DNA of 64,000 nt from contig CAWGVG010000005.1 of assembly GCA_963825865.1 (NCBI GenBank), positions 76,039-140,038 of the forward strand, read 5' to 3'. A program made the position numbers and the translations under genes. The notes beneath the pieces are model-generated. The model was not told the origin of the DNA. It saw only the letters and a list, made by a program, of their open reading frames with translations, and made no database searches. Below are positions 15,555 to 23,632 of the stretch, piece after piece. Position 1 is the stretch's first letter, and every line of letters starts with the position of its first letter. This DNA comes from an uncultured Nitrososphaeraceae archaeon (GTDB lineage Archaea; Thermoproteota; Nitrososphaeria; Nitrososphaerales; Nitrososphaeraceae).

Positions 15555-16147
15555 TCGGAGATTAGAACTTCAACTATAAAAAATGTCTTAACACATCACA
15601 ACATATTAACGAAATTTGAAAAATTTGCGTTCCATCATATAAAACAATCCGTTGTTTTTGAAACAAGGGATTGTTATTTCAAAAGTAGTAAAATATATTT
15701 TAATATTGCAGCTTCGTATTCTTAAATAAGGTATTGTCATAAAAACCGTTCCAATAACTGATATAAGATTAGATTATATGGTTACTAAAAGTGTGATAAA
15801 AATAAATTCCTCTATGTGACGTTATAGCGGCATAATAATGACTAAATCGCATAGTGGTATTGAGTCGTAATATGCAATCCAATAAAGATTCACCCTTTCC
15901 GTACCTTGGCATGGTTAGCTCTTTCTAATACTGTTAGGATTGATCATTGATCGTAGAAAGTATCTACTGCAAACACAGATACATTCCCTTCTCCTTGGAT
16001 AGGTATAGTAATATAGTTCTTTGAATCAATTTTTAATCTACATTATAAAGAAATTTACTAATCCTGATAGCGATTATTGCAGTTGTGGTAATTGTTATTT
16101 AACTCTGGTATGGGTAGAACTTATGGTTCGATATATTATCTATATAT

Positions 16148-16170
16148 CGCACAAAATCTTTATAAATTAT
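16148..16170 (+). promoter_or_regulatory. BRE-TATA promoter of the ilv/leu operon leader
   Basis: CGCACAAAATC followed by TTTATAAA (16160-16167), ~24 nt before ATG 16184. Confidence 0.55.
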
Positions 16171-16183
16171 ATCATTGCAATCT

Positions 16184-16325
16184 ATGAATAATGCCTTGGG
16201 CTAAAAGTGAAGGGTCTTGTATTACCTCGCAGCCTGCAGGGTACAGCGGTTACAGTTGTACTTCTGGTGCTGCTGCTTTAAATCATACTCTGCACTTTAT
16301 TTTGACAGGGCATTTTGGTGGAGAT
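16184..16325 (+). promoter_or_regulatory. Structured 5' leader with putative Val/Leu-rich leader peptide (attenuator candidate)
   Basis: uORF 16207-16281 ends VVLLVLLL; nested stems span 16190-16314; GGTGGA SD-like site at 16317. Confidence 0.6.
16207..16281 (+). CDS. Putative leader peptide (M)KGLVLPRSLQGTAVTVVLLVLLL; may start at 16184 if one G is missing
   Basis: Direct translation; eight consecutive Val/Leu codons before TAA, upstream of ilvB. Confidence 0.55.
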   Translation: MKGLVLPRSLQGTAVTVVLLVLLL

Positions 16326-16333
16326 ATATATAA

Positions 16334-18025
16334 ATGGTGGAGATGGCCGGCGCAAAAGGCTTGATTTGTGCTCTTGAAAAGGAGAACGTGGACATAGTGT
16401 TTGGACTTCCAGGTGGAGCAAACCTTCCTATCTATGATGCTCTAGTGGATGCTGGTCACCTACGTCATATTCTTGTACGGCATGAACAGTCTGCTGCTCA
16501 TATGGCTGACGGCTATGCAAGAATAAAAAGGAGAGCTGGAGTGTGTTTTGCTACTTCTGGTCCAGGTGCCACTAATCTTATCACAGGTATCGCTACAGCA
16601 TATGCTGATTCTTCTCCTTTGATCGCTGTAACTGGTCAAGTGCCATTAGCTATGATCGGAAAAGATGCTTTCCAAGAAACTGATATCATTGGTGTTGCTA
16701 ATCCTTGTACAAAGTATGCGTTCCAACCAACAACAGCAAGCGAAATCCCAGAATCAGTAAAAAAGGCTTTCTATATAGCAGAAAGTGGAAGACCTGGTCC
16801 TGTGCTCATAGATATTCCCAAAGATGTGCAGCAGGCTACTGCAGATATGAAATTTCCTGAACTTATCAAGGTAAGGGGTTACAGTCCTATCGTTGATGCT
16901 GATCTATCTCAAGTGGGAAAGGCTGTTGAAATTTTGCTTAAAGCGGAAAGGCCAATCATAATGGCTGGTGGGGGTGTAATTCTTTCAGGTGCTTTTTCCG
17001 AATTACAGGCACTTGCAGAATTGTTAATGACTCCTGTAGTAACTACCTTTAAAGGAAAAGGCGCGTTTCCTGAAAATCATCCTCTTGCTATGGGACCCAT
17101 TGGAATGCATGGACATGCGGAGGCCAATAAGATCATCATTGAAGCAGATTGCATACTCGCAGTGGGTGCAAGGTTTTCTGATAGATCGATAGGAAGATTT
17201 GACGAGTTTGGAAAAGGGATGAATATTATCCATATGGATGTCGATCCTGCAGAAATTGGTAAGAACAAGTCTGTCGATGTCGCAGTCATAGGCGATGTAA
17301 AATCATCGTTGAGAACACTTGTTAAGATGCTTCCAAGAAAAATGGTGAAAAAAGATACAGAAAACCCTTGGCTAAAGAGAAAAAAGGAGCTAATCGGATA
17401 CTATGCTGAAACGCTTAAAGACTATCCAAGGGACCTTACAGCCAAAAAAACTCTAAAAAAACTTAGAGAAATTTTACCTGCCAACGCAATTGCAACTACT
17501 GAAGTGGGTCAATGTCAGATGTGGACATCATTGCATTTTGATGTAATTTCACCTGGTACCTTTTTTAGCTCGACAGGTCTTGGAACAATGGGATTTGGAT
17601 TTCCTGCTTCAATAGGTGCAAAGGCGGCTAGGCCAGAAGTGCCAGTGGTAGACATTGCAGGCGATGGTTCTTTCAACATGACAGAAAATTCTCTAGCCGT
17701 ATCTGTTCTAGATAACCTCCCGGTAATCGTGTTTTTAATGAATAATTATATGCTTGGAATGGTAGCTCAATGGCAGAGAACATTTTATAACAGAAGATAC
17801 ATGGGAGTACATCAGCACAACCTCCCTGATTATGCAAAGATAGCAGAGGCATATGGTGCACAGGGAATCAAAGTGCAATCATCGCAAGAGTTAGAAAAGG
17901 CAATTAAATCTGCCTTGAAGACGGAAGTTGCCACTGTCATCGATATTCCAATTGATCCTGAAGAAGATGTTTATCCGTTTGTAGCACCTGGTACAGGTCT
18001 TAAAGATATGATTACAGGATCATGA
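16334..18025 (+). CDS. ilvB: Acetolactate synthase large subunit
   Basis: RHEQSAAHMADGYAR, TSGPGATN, DAFQE, GDGSF TPP motif. Confidence 0.97.
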   Translation: MVEMAGAKGLICALEKENVDIVFGLPGGANLPIYDALVDAGHLRHILVRHEQSAAHMADGYARIKRRAGVCFATSGPGATNLITGIATAYADSSPLIAVTGQVPLAMIGKDAFQETDIIGVANPCTKYAFQPTTASEIPESVKKAFYIAESGRPGPVLIDIPKDVQQATADMKFPELIKVRGYSPIVDADLSQVGKAVEILLKAERPIIMAGGGVILSGAFSELQALAELLMTPVVTTFKGKGAFPENHPLAMGPIGMHGHAEANKIIIEADCILAVGARFSDRSIGRFDEFGKGMNIIHMDVDPAEIGKNKSVDVAVIGDVKSSLRTLVKMLPRKMVKKDTENPWLKRKKELIGYYAETLKDYPRDLTAKKTLKKLREILPANAIATTEVGQCQMWTSLHFDVISPGTFFSSTGLGTMGFGFPASIGAKAARPEVPVVDIAGDGSFNMTENSLAVSVLDNLPVIVFLMNNYMLGMVAQWQRTFYNRRYMGVHQHNLPDYAKIAEAYGAQGIKVQSSQELEKAIKSALKTEVATVIDIPIDPEEDVYPFVAPGTGLKDMITGS

Positions 18026-18032
18026 CACTAAT

Positions 18033-20075
18033 ATGTCAACAACAACAACAACAACTACGACAAACGAACAAAGTAAACATTGGTATATACTATCTGCTCT
18101 GCTAGAAAACAAACCAGGTGTTTTATTTAGAGTGACAAACCTTTTCAGAGCACGAAACTTTAACATTGAAAGTATAACGGTAGGTTCCACTGAACAGGTC
18201 GATCTTTCAAGGATGACGATTACCACTAAGAGTGATGAAAAAACGCTAGATCAGCTTGTAAAACAGCTTAGGAAGTTGATTGATGTAGTAGAGGTAAAAG
18301 TGCTTGATACAGATAAAACAGTTTTCCGCGAACTGGCCTTAATCAAAATGAAGGCAGAAGATCCCACTACAAGAATGGAAATAACTAATTTCGCATCTAT
18401 ATTTAGAGCAAACATACTTGACATAGGAAAAGCAACCATTCTTGTAGAACTTACAGGAACCCCGGACAAAATAGATGCGTTTAAAAATCTCGTCGGACAT
18501 TATGGGATAATACAGTTGGCAAGAACTGGTGTTTCAGCACTCCCAAGAGGTGAAACCTTAGTGTTAGACATGATGGATAAAGTTAGAATTTTTGATACTA
18601 CGTTAAGAGATGGTGAACAGACGCCAGGGGTATCAGTTACTCCAGAACAGAAATTCAAGATTGCTATTAAACTAGATGAAATAGGTGTAGACGCTATTGA
18701 GGTTGGTTTTCCAATTGTTTCTCAAGGTGAAATGGAAGCAATAAAAGCAATAACCAAACAAGGATTAAATGCGGAAGTTTGTGGTCTGGCACGTACAGTT
18801 CAAGCGGATATTGATGCTGCAATAAATTGTAATTTAAAGTATGTACACACTTTCATTGCTACTTCTGACATCCATATGCAATACAAGCTTAAAATGAGTA
18901 GGGAGCAGGTGTTAGAAAAAGCAATATGGGCAGTAGATTATGCCAAGAAAAATGGCATGCAGGTAGAATTTTCGGCAGAAGACGCAACGAGATCAGATAA
19001 GGTATTTGTAAACACGGTTTTCAAGGCAGTTGCTGATGCCGGTGCTGATAGATTAGATATTCCTGATACTGTCGGTTATGCCACTCCTCAATATATTGCA
19101 GAACTCGTTAACGATGTGAAGATAGCAACGAAACTTCCCGTCAGCATACATTGTCATGATGATTTTGGGCTAGCTGTGGCTAACGCAATTTCTGGAATAA
19201 ATGCCGGTGCCTCCTGTGCGCATGTAACAATAAATGGTTTAGGAGAAAGAGCGGGAAATGCATCACTTGAGGAATTTGTTATGGCGCTTCAATGTCTATA
19301 TAATAAGAAACACAATATTAAAACTGAGTTACTTTATGAAACCTCCAAACTTATCTCCAACATAATGGGAATAATTGTTCAACCAAACAAAGCAATAATT
19401 GGTGAAAATGCTTTTGGTCATGAATCTGGCATCCACACACACGGTATTATAAATAATCCGCTTACTTACGAACCAATTAGTCCGGAACTAGTTGGAAGAA
19501 AAAGATGGATGCAAGCTGGAAAACATGCTGGGGCCCATGGTATCAAAGCAATGTTAGAAGAATTTGGGATCAAACCAACAGATGAACAGCTACATAATAT
19601 CGTCGAAAAACAAAAAAACCTTGCAGACAAAGGAAAATCAATAACTACCGCAGAACTTTTATCAATAGCTGGAGATATTATGCATAATAACAGGTTTGAA
19701 GAGAAATTCAAACTCTATGATTTTCATATTGTAACTGGAATGAATACCATACCAACAGCTGTTGTTAGATTGAATACAGATGGTAAAGATTTCATTGCAT
19801 CTGAAATTGGCGTTGGACCAGTAGATGCTGCATTGAAAGCTATACAAAAGGTCGCAGGAGAAATGGAGAACATCAAGATCCGTGAATACAGATTAGATTC
19901 TATTACAGGAGGTTCCGATGCGTTAGCCGAAGTTTCAATAAAGGTAGAAGACAAAAAAGGAAATATTGTATCTGCAAGAAAGGCAGGAGAGGACGTGGTA
20001 GTTGCCTCAGTTCAGGCAATGATGGATGCTATTAATAAAATAATGCTTAAGAAAATGCTCTATTCCAAGAACTAA
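18033..20075 (+). CDS. ilvH-leuA: Acetolactate synthase small subunit in frame with 2-isopropylmalate synthase (LeuA part from ~18570)
   Basis: ENKPGVLFRV...ARTG ACT domain, then DTTLRDGEQ, HCHDD, GERAGNA and GPVDA regulatory domain. Confidence 0.9.
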   Translation: MSTTTTTTTTNEQSKHWYILSALLENKPGVLFRVTNLFRARNFNIESITVGSTEQVDLSRMTITTKSDEKTLDQLVKQLRKLIDVVEVKVLDTDKTVFRELALIKMKAEDPTTRMEITNFASIFRANILDIGKATILVELTGTPDKIDAFKNLVGHYGIIQLARTGVSALPRGETLVLDMMDKVRIFDTTLRDGEQTPGVSVTPEQKFKIAIKLDEIGVDAIEVGFPIVSQGEMEAIKAITKQGLNAEVCGLARTVQADIDAAINCNLKYVHTFIATSDIHMQYKLKMSREQVLEKAIWAVDYAKKNGMQVEFSAEDATRSDKVFVNTVFKAVADAGADRLDIPDTVGYATPQYIAELVNDVKIATKLPVSIHCHDDFGLAVANAISGINAGASCAHVTINGLGERAGNASLEEFVMALQCLYNKKHNIKTELLYETSKLISNIMGIIVQPNKAIIGENAFGHESGIHTHGIINNPLTYEPISPELVGRKRWMQAGKHAGAHGIKAMLEEFGIKPTDEQLHNIVEKQKNLADKGKSITTAELLSIAGDIMHNNRFEEKFKLYDFHIVTGMNTIPTAVVRLNTDGKDFIASEIGVGPVDAALKAIQKVAGEMENIKIREYRLDSITGGSDALAEVSIKVEDKKGNIVSARKAGEDVVVASVQAMMDAINKIMLKKMLYSKN

Positions 20076-20108
20076 AGTTTATACGCTATTTAAAATGTTA
20101 ATGTTTGA

Positions 20109-21135
20109 TTGACGCGATACACTATTGCATTAATTACTGGCGATGGGATTGGTTCTGAATTAACAAGTTCAGCAAAAACAATTCTGGAAACAATAAGTGA
20201 TAATTCTACAACTAAATTTACAATAAATGAAGTCTGACGCAGGTGATAATGCACTTGTTAAATTTGGTAAAGCACTTCCAGATTTTACTCTGATATAATT
20301 AAAAAGTCTGAAGCCTGTTTGAAGGGTCCTGTTGGTGAAAGCGCAGCGGATGTAATCATTGTTCTTGAGACGCATATTTGATCTTTATGTAAATATCAGA
20401 CCAGCAAAATCCTATCCAAACGTTAAAAACCTCTCTGAGAATGTAGACCTTATAACAATAAGGGAAAATACCGAAGATATATACTTAGGTTGGGAATTCA
20501 ATATTGATGAGAATACAGTCATAGCATTGAGGCTGACGTCAGAAAGGGCATCAAGGAGGGTTGCAGAATATGCATTTAAAACAGCTGTCATACGGAATAC
20601 AAAGAGGAAGGTTGTAGCAGTTCATAAAGCCAATGTTTTACGGAAAGGCGACGGATTATTCTCGCAGACCTGTAGATCAGTTTCCCACAAATATCCCAAT
20701 ATACAATATAGCGAATTGTATGTTGATGCATGTGCTATGAATCTAATCCGTAATCCTGAAGATTTCGATATTATTCTGACAACGAACCTTTTTGGCGACA
20801 TTCTGTCTGATGAGGCAGCACAAGTGGTTGGTGGGTTAGGCATGGGTCCATCAGCCAATGTTGGAAATGATTTTGGATTATTTGAACCAGTTCATGGAGC
20901 TGCCTTTGATATCGCTGGAAAGAATATTGCAAATCCCTCATCGATTTTATTATCTACAAAAATGATGCTCGAATGGTTGGCAGACAAGTATAATGATAAT
21001 GATGCTTTCAAAGAGGGTCAGCGTATTGAAAATGTCATAACCAGTTTACTAAAACAAAACAAAAAAACAAAAGACATAGGCGGAAAACTTTCAACTACCG
21101 AGTTCACAAATTTGTTTGCTATTTCAATGTACTAG
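20109..21135 (+). CDS. leuB: 3-isopropylmalate dehydrogenase (two frameshifts in the 5' part)
   Basis: ITGDGIGSE, LKGPVG, RENTED, HKANV, NLFGDILSD, EPVHG. Confidence 0.9.
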
Positions 21136-21333
21136 AAGTTATATTTTTATCTATCTTAATCGCAATTACTTTGATTCATATCTACAAACCCTATGATTTT
21201 TTTTCTGTGATGCAAAATAAATGTCAAAATAAAACTATTAATTCGTATTGTTTATGAATGTAACTTGTATATTTTGACTCAGCTGGGTATTACTACTTAT
21301 AGCCTAAATAGAAGCTAAAAGATATATGTAAAC

Positions 21334-22324: not shown

Positions 22325-23632
22325 ATGTCTGTTAGATGTAATGATATTAAATCGGTTGATTATATTGGAAAACAGGTTACAATCAGAGGTTGGATACACA
22401 GAATAAGAAGACAAAAGGAAAACACATTCATCATACTTCGTGATGACCGTGGCGGCGTGATTCAGACTATATTTCCTACTGAAAAAGCAGCTCATCTTAC
22501 AATACAGTCATCTATTGAAATTACTGGCACATTAAGACTAGATCCGAGAGCTCCAGAAGGCGGTTATGAAATCAAGGGAAATGATTTAAAAACCTTTAAT
22601 ATTGCTGGAATTGACTTTCCCATAGGCAAATATCAGAGCGCTGAACTATTGTTGGACAAAAGACATCTTACTGTGAGAAGTCGGCGAATGATTGCAATAG
22701 CAAAGATCCGGGCTTCAATTATAAAATTTGCTCGTGAATGGTTTATAAAAAATGATTGGATTGAAGTAACTGCTCCTATTATCGTTAAAGGTGCAGTTGA
22801 AGGCGGTTCTACACTTTTCAAACTTAAATATTTTGATGAAGAGGCATATCTTTCACAAAGCGCACAACTATACCTTGAAGCAATGATCTTTTGTTTAGGA
22901 CCGGTTTGGAGTATTACGCCGTCATTTAGAGCAGAAAAATCTAGAACTGTTCGCCATCTCGCGGAATTTTCACATCTTGAAGCCGAAGCTCCATGGGTTA
23001 ATCTGGAAGATATATTGGTAGTGCAAGAACAATTAATTTCACATATTGTTCAAAATACGATCAATGAAAGAGCGGAGGAACTCGATTTGTTAAAAAGGGA
23101 TGTTACTGACTTAAAAATGGTAGAAGCACCATTCGACAGGATTTCATACAAAAAAGCAATTGAACTTCTGCAATCTAAAGGATTTATGATAATAGAAGAA
23201 GATGGAAGCAAGCATAGTATCAAATGGGGCGATGACCTCAATATTGATTCGGAACGCGAACTTACAAAAAATGCTACCAAGCCTATTTTTGTAGTTGGTT
23301 ATCCAATTGAAGTGAAGCCGTTCTACGTCAAAGAAGACTGTAGTAGTATGGGATTAGGACTTGCTGCTGATATGCTTGCTCCAAAAGGGTTTGGAGAAAT
23401 TACCAGCGGAGGATTGAGAGAAGACAATATTGCATTACTTACAAAAAGAATAGAAAAAGAAGGACTGAATCCAACTACATATGAATGGTATTTAGATCTC
23501 AGAAAATATGGTTCTGTTCCACACGGCGGCTTTGGATTGGGAATTGAGCGTTTGATAAGATGGATTACAAATGTAGTAGATATCAAAGACACGGTCCTGT
23601 TTCCAAGAACCATTTCACGAGTTACACCATAA
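22325..23632 (+). CDS. asnS: Asparagine--tRNA ligase
   Basis: OB fold, YLSQSAQLYLE, FRAEKSRTVRHLAEF, YGSVPHGGFGLGIER. Confidence 0.9.
   Translation: MSVRCNDIKSVDYIGKQVTIRGWIHRIRRQKENTFIILRDDRGGVIQTIFPTEKAAHLTIQSSIEITGTLRLDPRAPEGGYEIKGNDLKTFNIAGIDFPIGKYQSAELLLDKRHLTVRSRRMIAIAKIRASIIKFAREWFIKNDWIEVTAPIIVKGAVEGGSTLFKLKYFDEEAYLSQSAQLYLEAMIFCLGPVWSITPSFRAEKSRTVRHLAEFSHLEAEAPWVNLEDILVVQEQLISHIVQNTINERAEELDLLKRDVTDLKMVEAPFDRISYKKAIELLQSKGFMIIEEDGSKHSIKWGDDLNIDSERELTKNATKPIFVVGYPIEVKPFYVKEDCSSMGLGLAADMLAPKGFGEITSGGLREDNIALLTKRIEKEGLNPTTYEWYLDLRKYGSVPHGGFGLGIERLIRWITNVVDIKDTVLFPRTISRVTP

Follow-up and report, generated by a model that had tools for sequence, protein, structure and literature searches.

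A candidate Leu/Val/Ile-sensing leader peptide upstream of ilvB in an ammonia-oxidising archaeon

Leader-peptide attenuation is textbook knowledge for bacteria and relies on transcription being coupled to translation. Could it also operate in Archaea? The question is raised by a short upstream open reading frame (uORF) ending in Val and Leu codons, which precedes the ilvB-ilvH-leuA-leuB operon in a 64,000-nt stretch of DNA from an uncultured Nitrososphaeraceae archaeon (GCA_963825865.1, contig CAWGVG010000005.1, positions 76,039 to 140,038 of the forward strand). This whole stretch is called the window, and positions are counted from its first letter. The leader is probably a ribosome-mediated attenuator of the operon that would sense Leu, Val and Ile. 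Built on an apparently leaderless uORF with its codon run beside the stop, it would be a variant of a mechanism so far known from bacterial examples only. No archaeal amino-acid-sensing leader peptide was found in full-text literature searches or in Rfam. A Haloferax start-site study reports uORFs in long leaders, and neither attenuation nor leader peptide occurs as a term in it (PMC4983044).

The evidence that carries this reading is comparative. Regions upstream of ilvB from 124 genomes of the window's order, in 19 families (numbered with an f; individual loci carry an L), were scored by the ATG-initiated uORF, no longer than 70 aa and with its end 10-130 nt before ilvB, that had the most Leu, Val or Ile among its last 10 residues. 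At least 6/10 was reached in 74 of the 124 regions (60%) and at least 7/10 in 55, counts which overstate significance and are not probabilities, because related genomes are not independent. The reverse complement of the same regions gave 4/124 and 1/124 at these thresholds, mononucleotide shuffles 3.1% and 0.5%, and all upstream regions of the window's own genome (G000) 118/3022 (3.9%) and 32/3022. The rate upstream of ilvB is about 20 times the control rates. Only 1/30 regions upstream of ilvD in relatives reached 6/10, as did 3/50 ilvB upstream regions from 23 families in other orders of the phylum. A conserved uORF before ilvB was the comparative check named in the original prediction, made from this sequence alone, and it was borne out in 74/124 relatives vs 3-4% in controls.

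At least one passing member is present in 17 of the 19 families, none being found in f2 and f11 (f1 15/36, f3 1/1, f4 7/9, f5 1/1, f6 2/2, f7 8/9, f8 1/1, f9 1/10, f10 1/2, f12 8/8, f13 18/23, f14 1/3, f15 4/11, f16 1/1, f17 1/1, f19 3/3, f20 1/1). The single f9 case, L056, is doubtful, being Ile-rich and ending 11 nt before the gene; it passes the threshold and was dropped from the tail and TATA counts below, for which the 74 uORFs are those of 73 relatives plus the window. Conversely, the threshold misses homologous uORFs scoring 4-5 (L005, L007, L008). Left out of the relatives were G126 (unpublished), G134 (stops within ilvB), G054 (truncated by the contig end) and G006 (gene over two contigs), as well as second ilvB copies in G089 and G112.

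Among the 74 uORFs, Leu, Val or Ile occupies position -2 from the stop in 95% and position -3 in 89%. Tail composition, in a set itself selected on Leu/Val/Ile content, is L 0.38, V 0.25 and I 0.09, with F at 0.016, M at 0.004 and A at 0.03; the tail is specifically branched-chain and not generally hydrophobic. Peptide tails differ by family, e.g. ..LLLLVVLLD, ..VVLLSSVVLQ, ..LLVELVL, ..LSLLVILA and ..VLPLVVLL, and since both peptides and DNA differ between families, repeated selection for the same codon class is indicated. On this sequence comparison the uORF and its Val/Leu tail are real and far from chance.

In the window, the features of the uORF and its promoter are the following.

16159..16167, forward strand: TATA box TTTATAAAT of the leader/ilvB promoter, kept in 10/10 family sequences, 32-36 nt before the uORF ATG.
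16191..16281, forward strand: leader uORF, 29 codons plus stop once a surplus C is dropped, as identified by comparison with relatives' uORFs.
16233..16234, no strand: CC in place of an expected single C, probably a 1-nt assembly error (blastn against L002 and a contig of short-read run X10).
16249..16278, forward strand: codons V T V V L L V L L L, the candidate regulatory run, abutting the stop TAA 16279-16281.

Nine of the last ten uORF codons are Val or Leu. The frame recorded for the window in the list of open reading frames runs from GTG 16207 to TAA 16279-16281, reads MKGLVLPRSLQGTAVTVVLLVLLL and ends in eight codons (16255-16278) that are all Val or Leu, as had been noticed originally along with the TATA box. 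Two further suggestions, a leaderless start at ATG 16184 and a missing G at 16198-16200 that would open the frame to it, find no support: ATG 16184 opens only MNNALG before a stop, and relatives have no counterpart of this ATG. The conserved start is ATG 16191. All ten aligned leaders of the same family have a TATA box followed by the uORF ATG 32-36 nt after its first T, and homologous uORFs comprise 29-32 codons in L002, L003, L005, L006, L008, L010 and L011 and 19-21 codons in L007 and L009; that of L002 reads MPWTKGEEFCITSSQLHDSIVTAVRMLLI.

The first 14 codons of the window's uORF (MPWAKSEGSCITSQ, in the frame of ATG 16191) match the uORFs of relatives, and the Val/Leu tail (LQGTAVTVVLLVLLL, in the frame of GTG 16207) lies one base out of frame because of the surplus C at 16233-16234. 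At the break the window has CAGCCTG and L002 has CAGCTG (blastn). A single short-read contig, from run X10 at a depth of 3.3, covers the place. Its alignment begins at 16234, and the 12 unaligned letters at its end match 16222-16233 with one C missing, a single C where the window has two. The surplus C is a probable 1-nt assembly error, the X10 contig agreeing with the comparison and with the local error pattern described below.

The uORF looks leaderless, since ATG 16191 sits 32 nt after the first T of the TATA box. A TATA-like hexamer 28-42 nt upstream of an in-frame ATG was found for 68 of the 74 uORFs vs 10% of random positions, a spacing that fits leaderless or near-leaderless uORFs, 14-35 codons in length. 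For Thaumarchaeota, leaderless transcription is reported to be typical (11/11 genomes, PMC6028130).

What follows the uORF stop is, in most loci, a hairpin that starts -6 to +3 nt relative to it. For a 61-nt segment starting at stop-6, the fold beats shuffles at z <= -2 in 34 of 75 loci (median z over all loci -1.4); these 34 include all of f4 (7/7) and f7 (8/8), most of f12 (7/8), and f5, f6, f17 and f20. Hairpin arms vary by family (CCTGCAG/CTGCAGG, CTTGTAG/CTACAAG, CCCAGCG/CGCTGGG, GCCTAC/GTAGGT, CCCACAG/CTGTGGG, GGGCTCA/TGAGCCC and GCTGTA/TACAGC). In f12, 91.9% of alignment cells pair, with 3 compensatory pairs (7 cells), and 0/500 shuffles reach this; in f4, 90.8% of cells pair vs at most 61.8% when the arms are slid, with no compensatory changes. 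In a further hairpin, upstream of the stop, the Leu/Val run pairs with codons from the early part of the uORF; it is seen in f4 (15 invariant pairs), f7 (two compensatory pairs) and f12. By eye, a T-rich stretch follows the post-stop hairpin in f1, f4, f5, f12, part of f13, f16 and f17; automatic counts of T-runs were unreliable because helices of the minimum free energy (MFE) fold absorb the T-run.

A separate layout is displayed by f12 (L107-L114), in which the uORF tail UGUCCUCC pairs with the Shine-Dalgarno (SD) sequence GGAGGA of ilvB and encloses the post-stop hairpin. This pairing holds in 93.8% of cells vs at most 62.5% when slid, shows no covariation, and would explain the two Ser codons inside the run. 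It would correspond to the layout of translational attenuation, and is seen in f12 only.

In the window, the features between the uORF and ilvB, and the pairing that spans them, are as follows.

16288..16310, forward strand: post-stop hairpin, CTCTG (16288-92), 13-nt loop, CAGGG (16306-10); weak, 5 bp; relatives have CTCTGC/GCAGGG.
16190..16314, forward strand: predicted long-range pairing of AATGCCTT (16190-16197) with AGGGCATT (16307-14), from the MFE fold.
16313..16316, forward strand: T-run TTTT directly 3' of the hairpin.
16317..16323, forward strand: SD-like GGTGGAG for ilvB, 10 nt before ilvB ATG 16334.

The uORF lies on the same strand as ilvB and ends 52 nt before it, within the 29-77 nt (median 55.5) spanned by the 74 uORFs, and relatives have an SD-like GGTGA or GGAGG 5-12 nt before the ilvB start. 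The long-range pairing and the post-stop hairpin would be mutually exclusive, because CAGGG is common to both. The AATGCCTT/AGGGCATT pairing recurs in the folds of L003, L005 and L011, with 75% of cells pairing and no covariation, and candidate alternatives in f1 (16190-97 with 16307-14; GTGAAG.. with CTCTGCAC) pair in 71-75% of cells, also with no covariation. The whole-leader fold of -45.5 kcal/mol (z -1.7; 9/200 shuffles as stable) is not clearly above chance. RNAalifold returned no consensus for 16 f13 sequences, and Rfam had no match at gathering score in the whole window and only chance-level hits around the leader and in 16 related loci.

The original prediction of a Val/Leu leader peptide keeps its core, a uORF with a Leu/Val/Ile-rich 3' end in 17/19 families and a hairpin after the stop, and the SD-like site that it placed before ilvB; its start codon, its nested stems and the role it gave to the T-rich TTTATTTT at 16296 are not upheld. 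The latter lies inside the hairpin loop, the T-run that follows the hairpin being 16313-16316. As for the stems, the AATGCCTT/AGGGCATT pairing is indeed present in the MFE fold; covariation was absent and pairing did not exceed that of shuffles.

How the leader might act can be laid out in steps, by which the observed promoter spacing, conserved uORF, Leu/Val/Ile run at the stop, hairpin position and SD-like site would be linked through uORF translation, stalling and a regulatory output. Transcription would start at ATG 16191 or slightly ahead of it, some 30 nt past the TATA box, and the leader frame would be translated leaderless up to its last 8-10 codons, Val and Leu here and Leu, Val and Ile in relatives, which extend to the stop. 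The hairpin would begin within a few bases of that stop; in the window TTTT comes next, and the ilvB ribosome-binding site after it. With charged Leu, Val and Ile tRNAs plentiful, the ribosome would finish and leave, the hairpin would form, and operon expression would be low. With charged tRNAs scarce, the ribosome would dwell on the run, its footprint would lie over the stop and the 5' arm of the hairpin, and the hairpin would stay open and the operon be expressed. A ribosome footprint extends about 12-15 nt beyond the A site. That the open state is the one that switches the operon on is required by physiological logic.

Termination at the U-run, in the window and in families with a T-run, is the output favoured, if tentatively; control of ilvB translation ranks close behind. 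Where a U-run comes after it, the closed hairpin may make the polymerase pause or terminate; alternatively, it may limit translation of ilvB. The full scheme of an archaeal transcription attenuator, in which a ribosome on a leaderless leader peptide occludes a stop-adjacent hairpin and the polymerase accordingly terminates at a short U-run or not, is doubtful. If true, hairpin-assisted, translation-controlled termination by the eukaryote-like archaeal RNA polymerase would exist in Archaea and would have been kept across ammonia-oxidising archaea.

A number of results weigh against attenuation or against one of its outputs, beyond the non-independence of the genomes counted. Below the threshold are 50 of the 124 relatives, including most of f9 and several f1 genera. 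The post-stop fold is weak in f13, in most of f1 and in the window (z -0.2; 5 bp, 13-nt loop). Three window-family helices were scored, i.e. the post-stop hairpin, the pairing of the 5' end with 16307-14 and the stem AAAGTG-AGGGT/ACTCT-CACTTT; across 10 sequences they lack covariation, 71-77% of cells pair (76.7% for the post-stop hairpin), and none rises above shuffles. By eye, the T-run after the hairpin is absent from f3, f6, f7, f10, f14, f15, f19 and f20, roughly one family in two. Over 20 kb around the locus, hairpin-plus-T sites of bacterial type show no enrichment (11 found vs 11.0 +/- 3.4 expected), and the pattern scan did not flag the window's own 5-bp hairpin with TTTT. A kinetic argument, with release fast relative to the decision, is needed as well, because a ribosome at the stop also covers the hairpin arm. 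Archaeal termination is reported to depend on U-tracts and aCPSF1 and not on hairpins (PMC8716108), so that a role of the hairpin would be new.

For the translational output, the ilvB SD was predicted to become more accessible by over 0.15 in just 9/75 loci when the stall footprint was masked, mean predicted accessibility being 0.455 free vs 0.474 masked (75 loci). General sequestration of the ilvB SD was therefore set aside, f12 excepted. A similar ilvB leader in Streptomyces coelicolor also counts against the proposal, since changes of candidate regulatory codons there are reported to have had no effect (PMC1262725).

Four other explanations can be set beside the proposed attenuator. The least unlikely is that the uORF is translated and aids ilvB by ribosome loading, termination-reinitiation or 5'-end protection, with no amino-acid sensing. 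The Leu/Val codons would then be there for the sake of RNA pairing: in f4 (15 pairs), f7 and f12 the run is the 3' arm of a hairpin whose other arm is made of upstream uORF codons. The short distance from stop to ilvB (29-77 nt, median 55.5) suits this explanation, as does the proposal that leader genes raise translation by reinitiation (PMC4833913). Pairing needs would not, however, impose one amino-acid class on 17 families with differing sequences, nor give a period-3 NUN pattern ending exactly at the stop; moreover, such uORFs are rare upstream of ilvD (1/30), and His-rich uORFs are absent upstream of hisG (0/30, Leu/Val/Ile tails being unscored there). Ranked after it, and improbable, is an RNA structure made of the hairpin and conserved blocks (AATGCC, GGTGAAGAG, CTCTGCAC and GCAGGGCGTTT in the family alignment), bound by a protein or metabolite, with the reading frame incidental. 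Conservation of hairpin position speaks for such a structure. An incidental frame would hardly stay open from a TATA-spaced ATG to a stop before the hairpin in 74/124 loci over 14-35 codons, with only 4/124 on the reverse strand, and there is no Rfam match.

Very improbable is a small hydrophobic protein co-transcribed with ilvB, i.e. a functional membrane or enzyme-associated micropeptide. It would account for the conserved presence of the uORF and its hydrophobic C-terminus, but beyond composition no peptide conservation is evident between families, the hydrophobic stretch is short, at about 8-10 residues, there is little Phe, Met, Ala or Trp, and the association is with ilvB alone. A chance frame in AT-rich intergenic DNA is hardly credible and is refuted by the controls: Ile/Leu-rich short frames do arise by chance, at least 6/10 being reached in 3.9% of G000 upstream regions, vs 60% upstream of ilvB and 3-4% in every control. 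The attenuator sensing Leu, Val and Ile remains the favoured explanation.

Similar leaders were sought before other genes. A Trp leader for trpE appeared as a conserved mini-frame 'M-G-G-x-(L/V/F)-W' just ahead of the gene in 14/30 trpE loci vs 2/30 and 1/30 in controls, and was rejected as the TrpE N-terminal coding region in another frame; no hairpin follows it. In many relatives trpE (L165-L194) has an apparent leaderless GTG start about 30 nt after a TATA box, a conserved N-terminus (W)V-x-T-F-G, and an ATG four bases upstream of the GTG that opens a short overlapping frame. Upstream of hisG, a His-rich uORF was present in 0/30 loci. Other amino-acid-rich uORFs across G000 were also discarded, the nine downstream genes checked being off-pathway (terminase-like, transposase, glycosyltransferase and others); the uORF preceding homoserine dehydrogenase lacks both TATA box and hairpin and is probably due to chance.

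Among known systems, the enterobacterial attenuators of ilvBN, ilvGMEDA and leu carry, in the classical form, their regulatory codons in segment 1, the choice there being between a 2:3 antiterminator and a competing 3:4 terminator. The archaeal leader resembles them in a leader peptide enriched in the amino acids that the operon makes and, as proposed here, in a ribosome that would read tRNA charging; it differs in that the run stands at the 3' end of the uORF, beside the stop and hairpin, and no antiterminator is supported. In translational attenuation of the ermC/cat type, drugs act through the nascent peptide and a hairpin holds the SD. There as here (in the proposal) a ribosome stalled in the leader frame would open a downstream hairpin, but the signal here would be tRNA charging. 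The leader peptide of Corynebacterium glutamicum is reportedly made without a ribosome-binding site (Morbach 2000).

The nearest described systems also include actinobacterial ilvB leaders (ilvBNC of Corynebacterium, Mycobacterium and Streptomyces; the ilvB-II motif), for which the same architecture is reported. There, immediately ahead of ilvB, a short frame containing runs of Ile, Val and Leu codons adjoins or overlaps a hairpin, and a U-run comes after the hairpin (PMC1262725). A Corynebacterium ilvB-II uORF, as well as ilvB-OMG and Leptospira ilvB motifs, is described in PMC10272879, the uORF peptides being enriched in branched-chain residues. Unlike these, the present leader has an archaeal host, a TATA/TFB promoter and archaeal RNA polymerase and ribosomes, and shows no sequence relationship. 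A three-hairpin model of terminator, antiterminator and anti-antiterminator is set out in PMC11857589; such a set could not be established here. Mycobacterial leaderless polycysteine short frames (the 'Cys ribulon') are first cistrons in which ribosomes stalled in the run of cognate codons block an inhibitory mRNA structure, as 10.1101/834739 describes. The archaeal leader shares with that account a leaderless candidate sensory short frame as first cistron, and differs from it in amino acid and domain of life; predicted SD sequestration is not general here (9/75), being present in f12.

If the proposed attenuator is true, ribosome-based amino-acid sensing also works with archaeal promoters, leaderless messages and archaeal polymerase. 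It would show how globally important nitrifiers tune branched-chain amino-acid synthesis, and would make both the coupling of transcription to translation and the part played by RNA hairpins in archaeal termination open to concrete tests. At the least, a small leader feature is available for annotation in ammonia-oxidising archaeal genomes.

Outside the pattern described, other conserved elements occur before ilvB. Most f9 loci (L052-L055, L057) are without a Leu/Val-tailed uORF and have instead a conserved uORF starting MLYH.., some with a run of Met codons (MMMM). The conserved motif CC[CT]TCCAAGT is present 64-106 nt upstream of ilvB in 8/50 genomes from other orders of the phylum (L254-L256, L265, L266, L272-L274; f37 3/3, f45 2/2, f52 2/2, f53 1/1) and in 0/125 loci of the window's order. 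It sits in a mini-frame ending ..(G)TLQV, contains an anti-SD-like CCUCC, has no Rfam match, and may be a different ilvB leader element of those orders.

The host is an ammonia-oxidising archaeon. Its genome encodes an archaeal AmoA (383 bits by profile search), with AmoA family matches in 0/14 control genomes, and numerous TFB genes, a family matched only in the four archaeal control genomes. Public runs containing the stretch are labelled soil metagenome wherever an organism is given, 3/20 runs being without a label. The operon order ilvB-ilvH-leuA-leuB agrees with that first assigned, TIGR00118 identifying ilvB and domains of ilvH, leuA and leuB following it.

16334..18025, forward strand: ilvB, biosynthetic acetolactate synthase large subunit; Pfam TPP-enzyme N, M and C domains; TIGR00118 at 701.7 bits (cut-off 538).
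18033..20075, forward strand: ilvH (ACT and ALS_ss_C domains) and leuA, a single 680-aa frame in the assembly, from Pfam.
20106..21135, forward strand: leuB, matched at Iso_dh profile positions 90-346 only; assembly indels scatter its first ~90 codons over different frames (three-frame reading).

An N-terminal extension of ilvB is excluded by the in-frame stop TAA at 16331-16333, directly before ATG 16334. Contigs of public short-read runs were compared with window positions 15800-21300, and single-base indel errors in the assembly proved frequent against these independent contigs (18556, 20230, 20289, 20365, 21175 and 21197). The apparent fusion of ilvH and leuA and the broken leuB are artefacts of such indels: ilvH and leuA, separate genes in relatives, read as one frame because of a surplus base at 18556 that is left out in 4/4 runs, and the indels at 20230, 20289 and 20365, seen in 2/2 covering DNA runs (X1, X10), mend leuB when corrected. 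A 3-nt CAA insertion variant near the ilvH start (18036) occurs in some short-read runs. Contigs from two RNA runs both begin at 16423, none lying over 15984-16351, and X10 DNA contigs break at 16423 as well.

Several neighbouring features can be recorded. Between the divergent gene for a Zn-dependent dehydrogenase and the ilvB promoter lie ~600 AT-rich nt (15555-16158) with no frame of at least 60 aa and no Rfam match. In the window's family a conserved protein of ~62 aa with two CxxC pairs (..CPKCDY..CGMCET..) is encoded directly upstream of ilvD (L145-L150, L153, L156 on G000:C9, L159, L160, L164). Downstream of the operon, at 22325-23632, is a class II tRNA ligase whose best score is that for asparagine-tRNA ligase (421.6 bits, cut-off 414).

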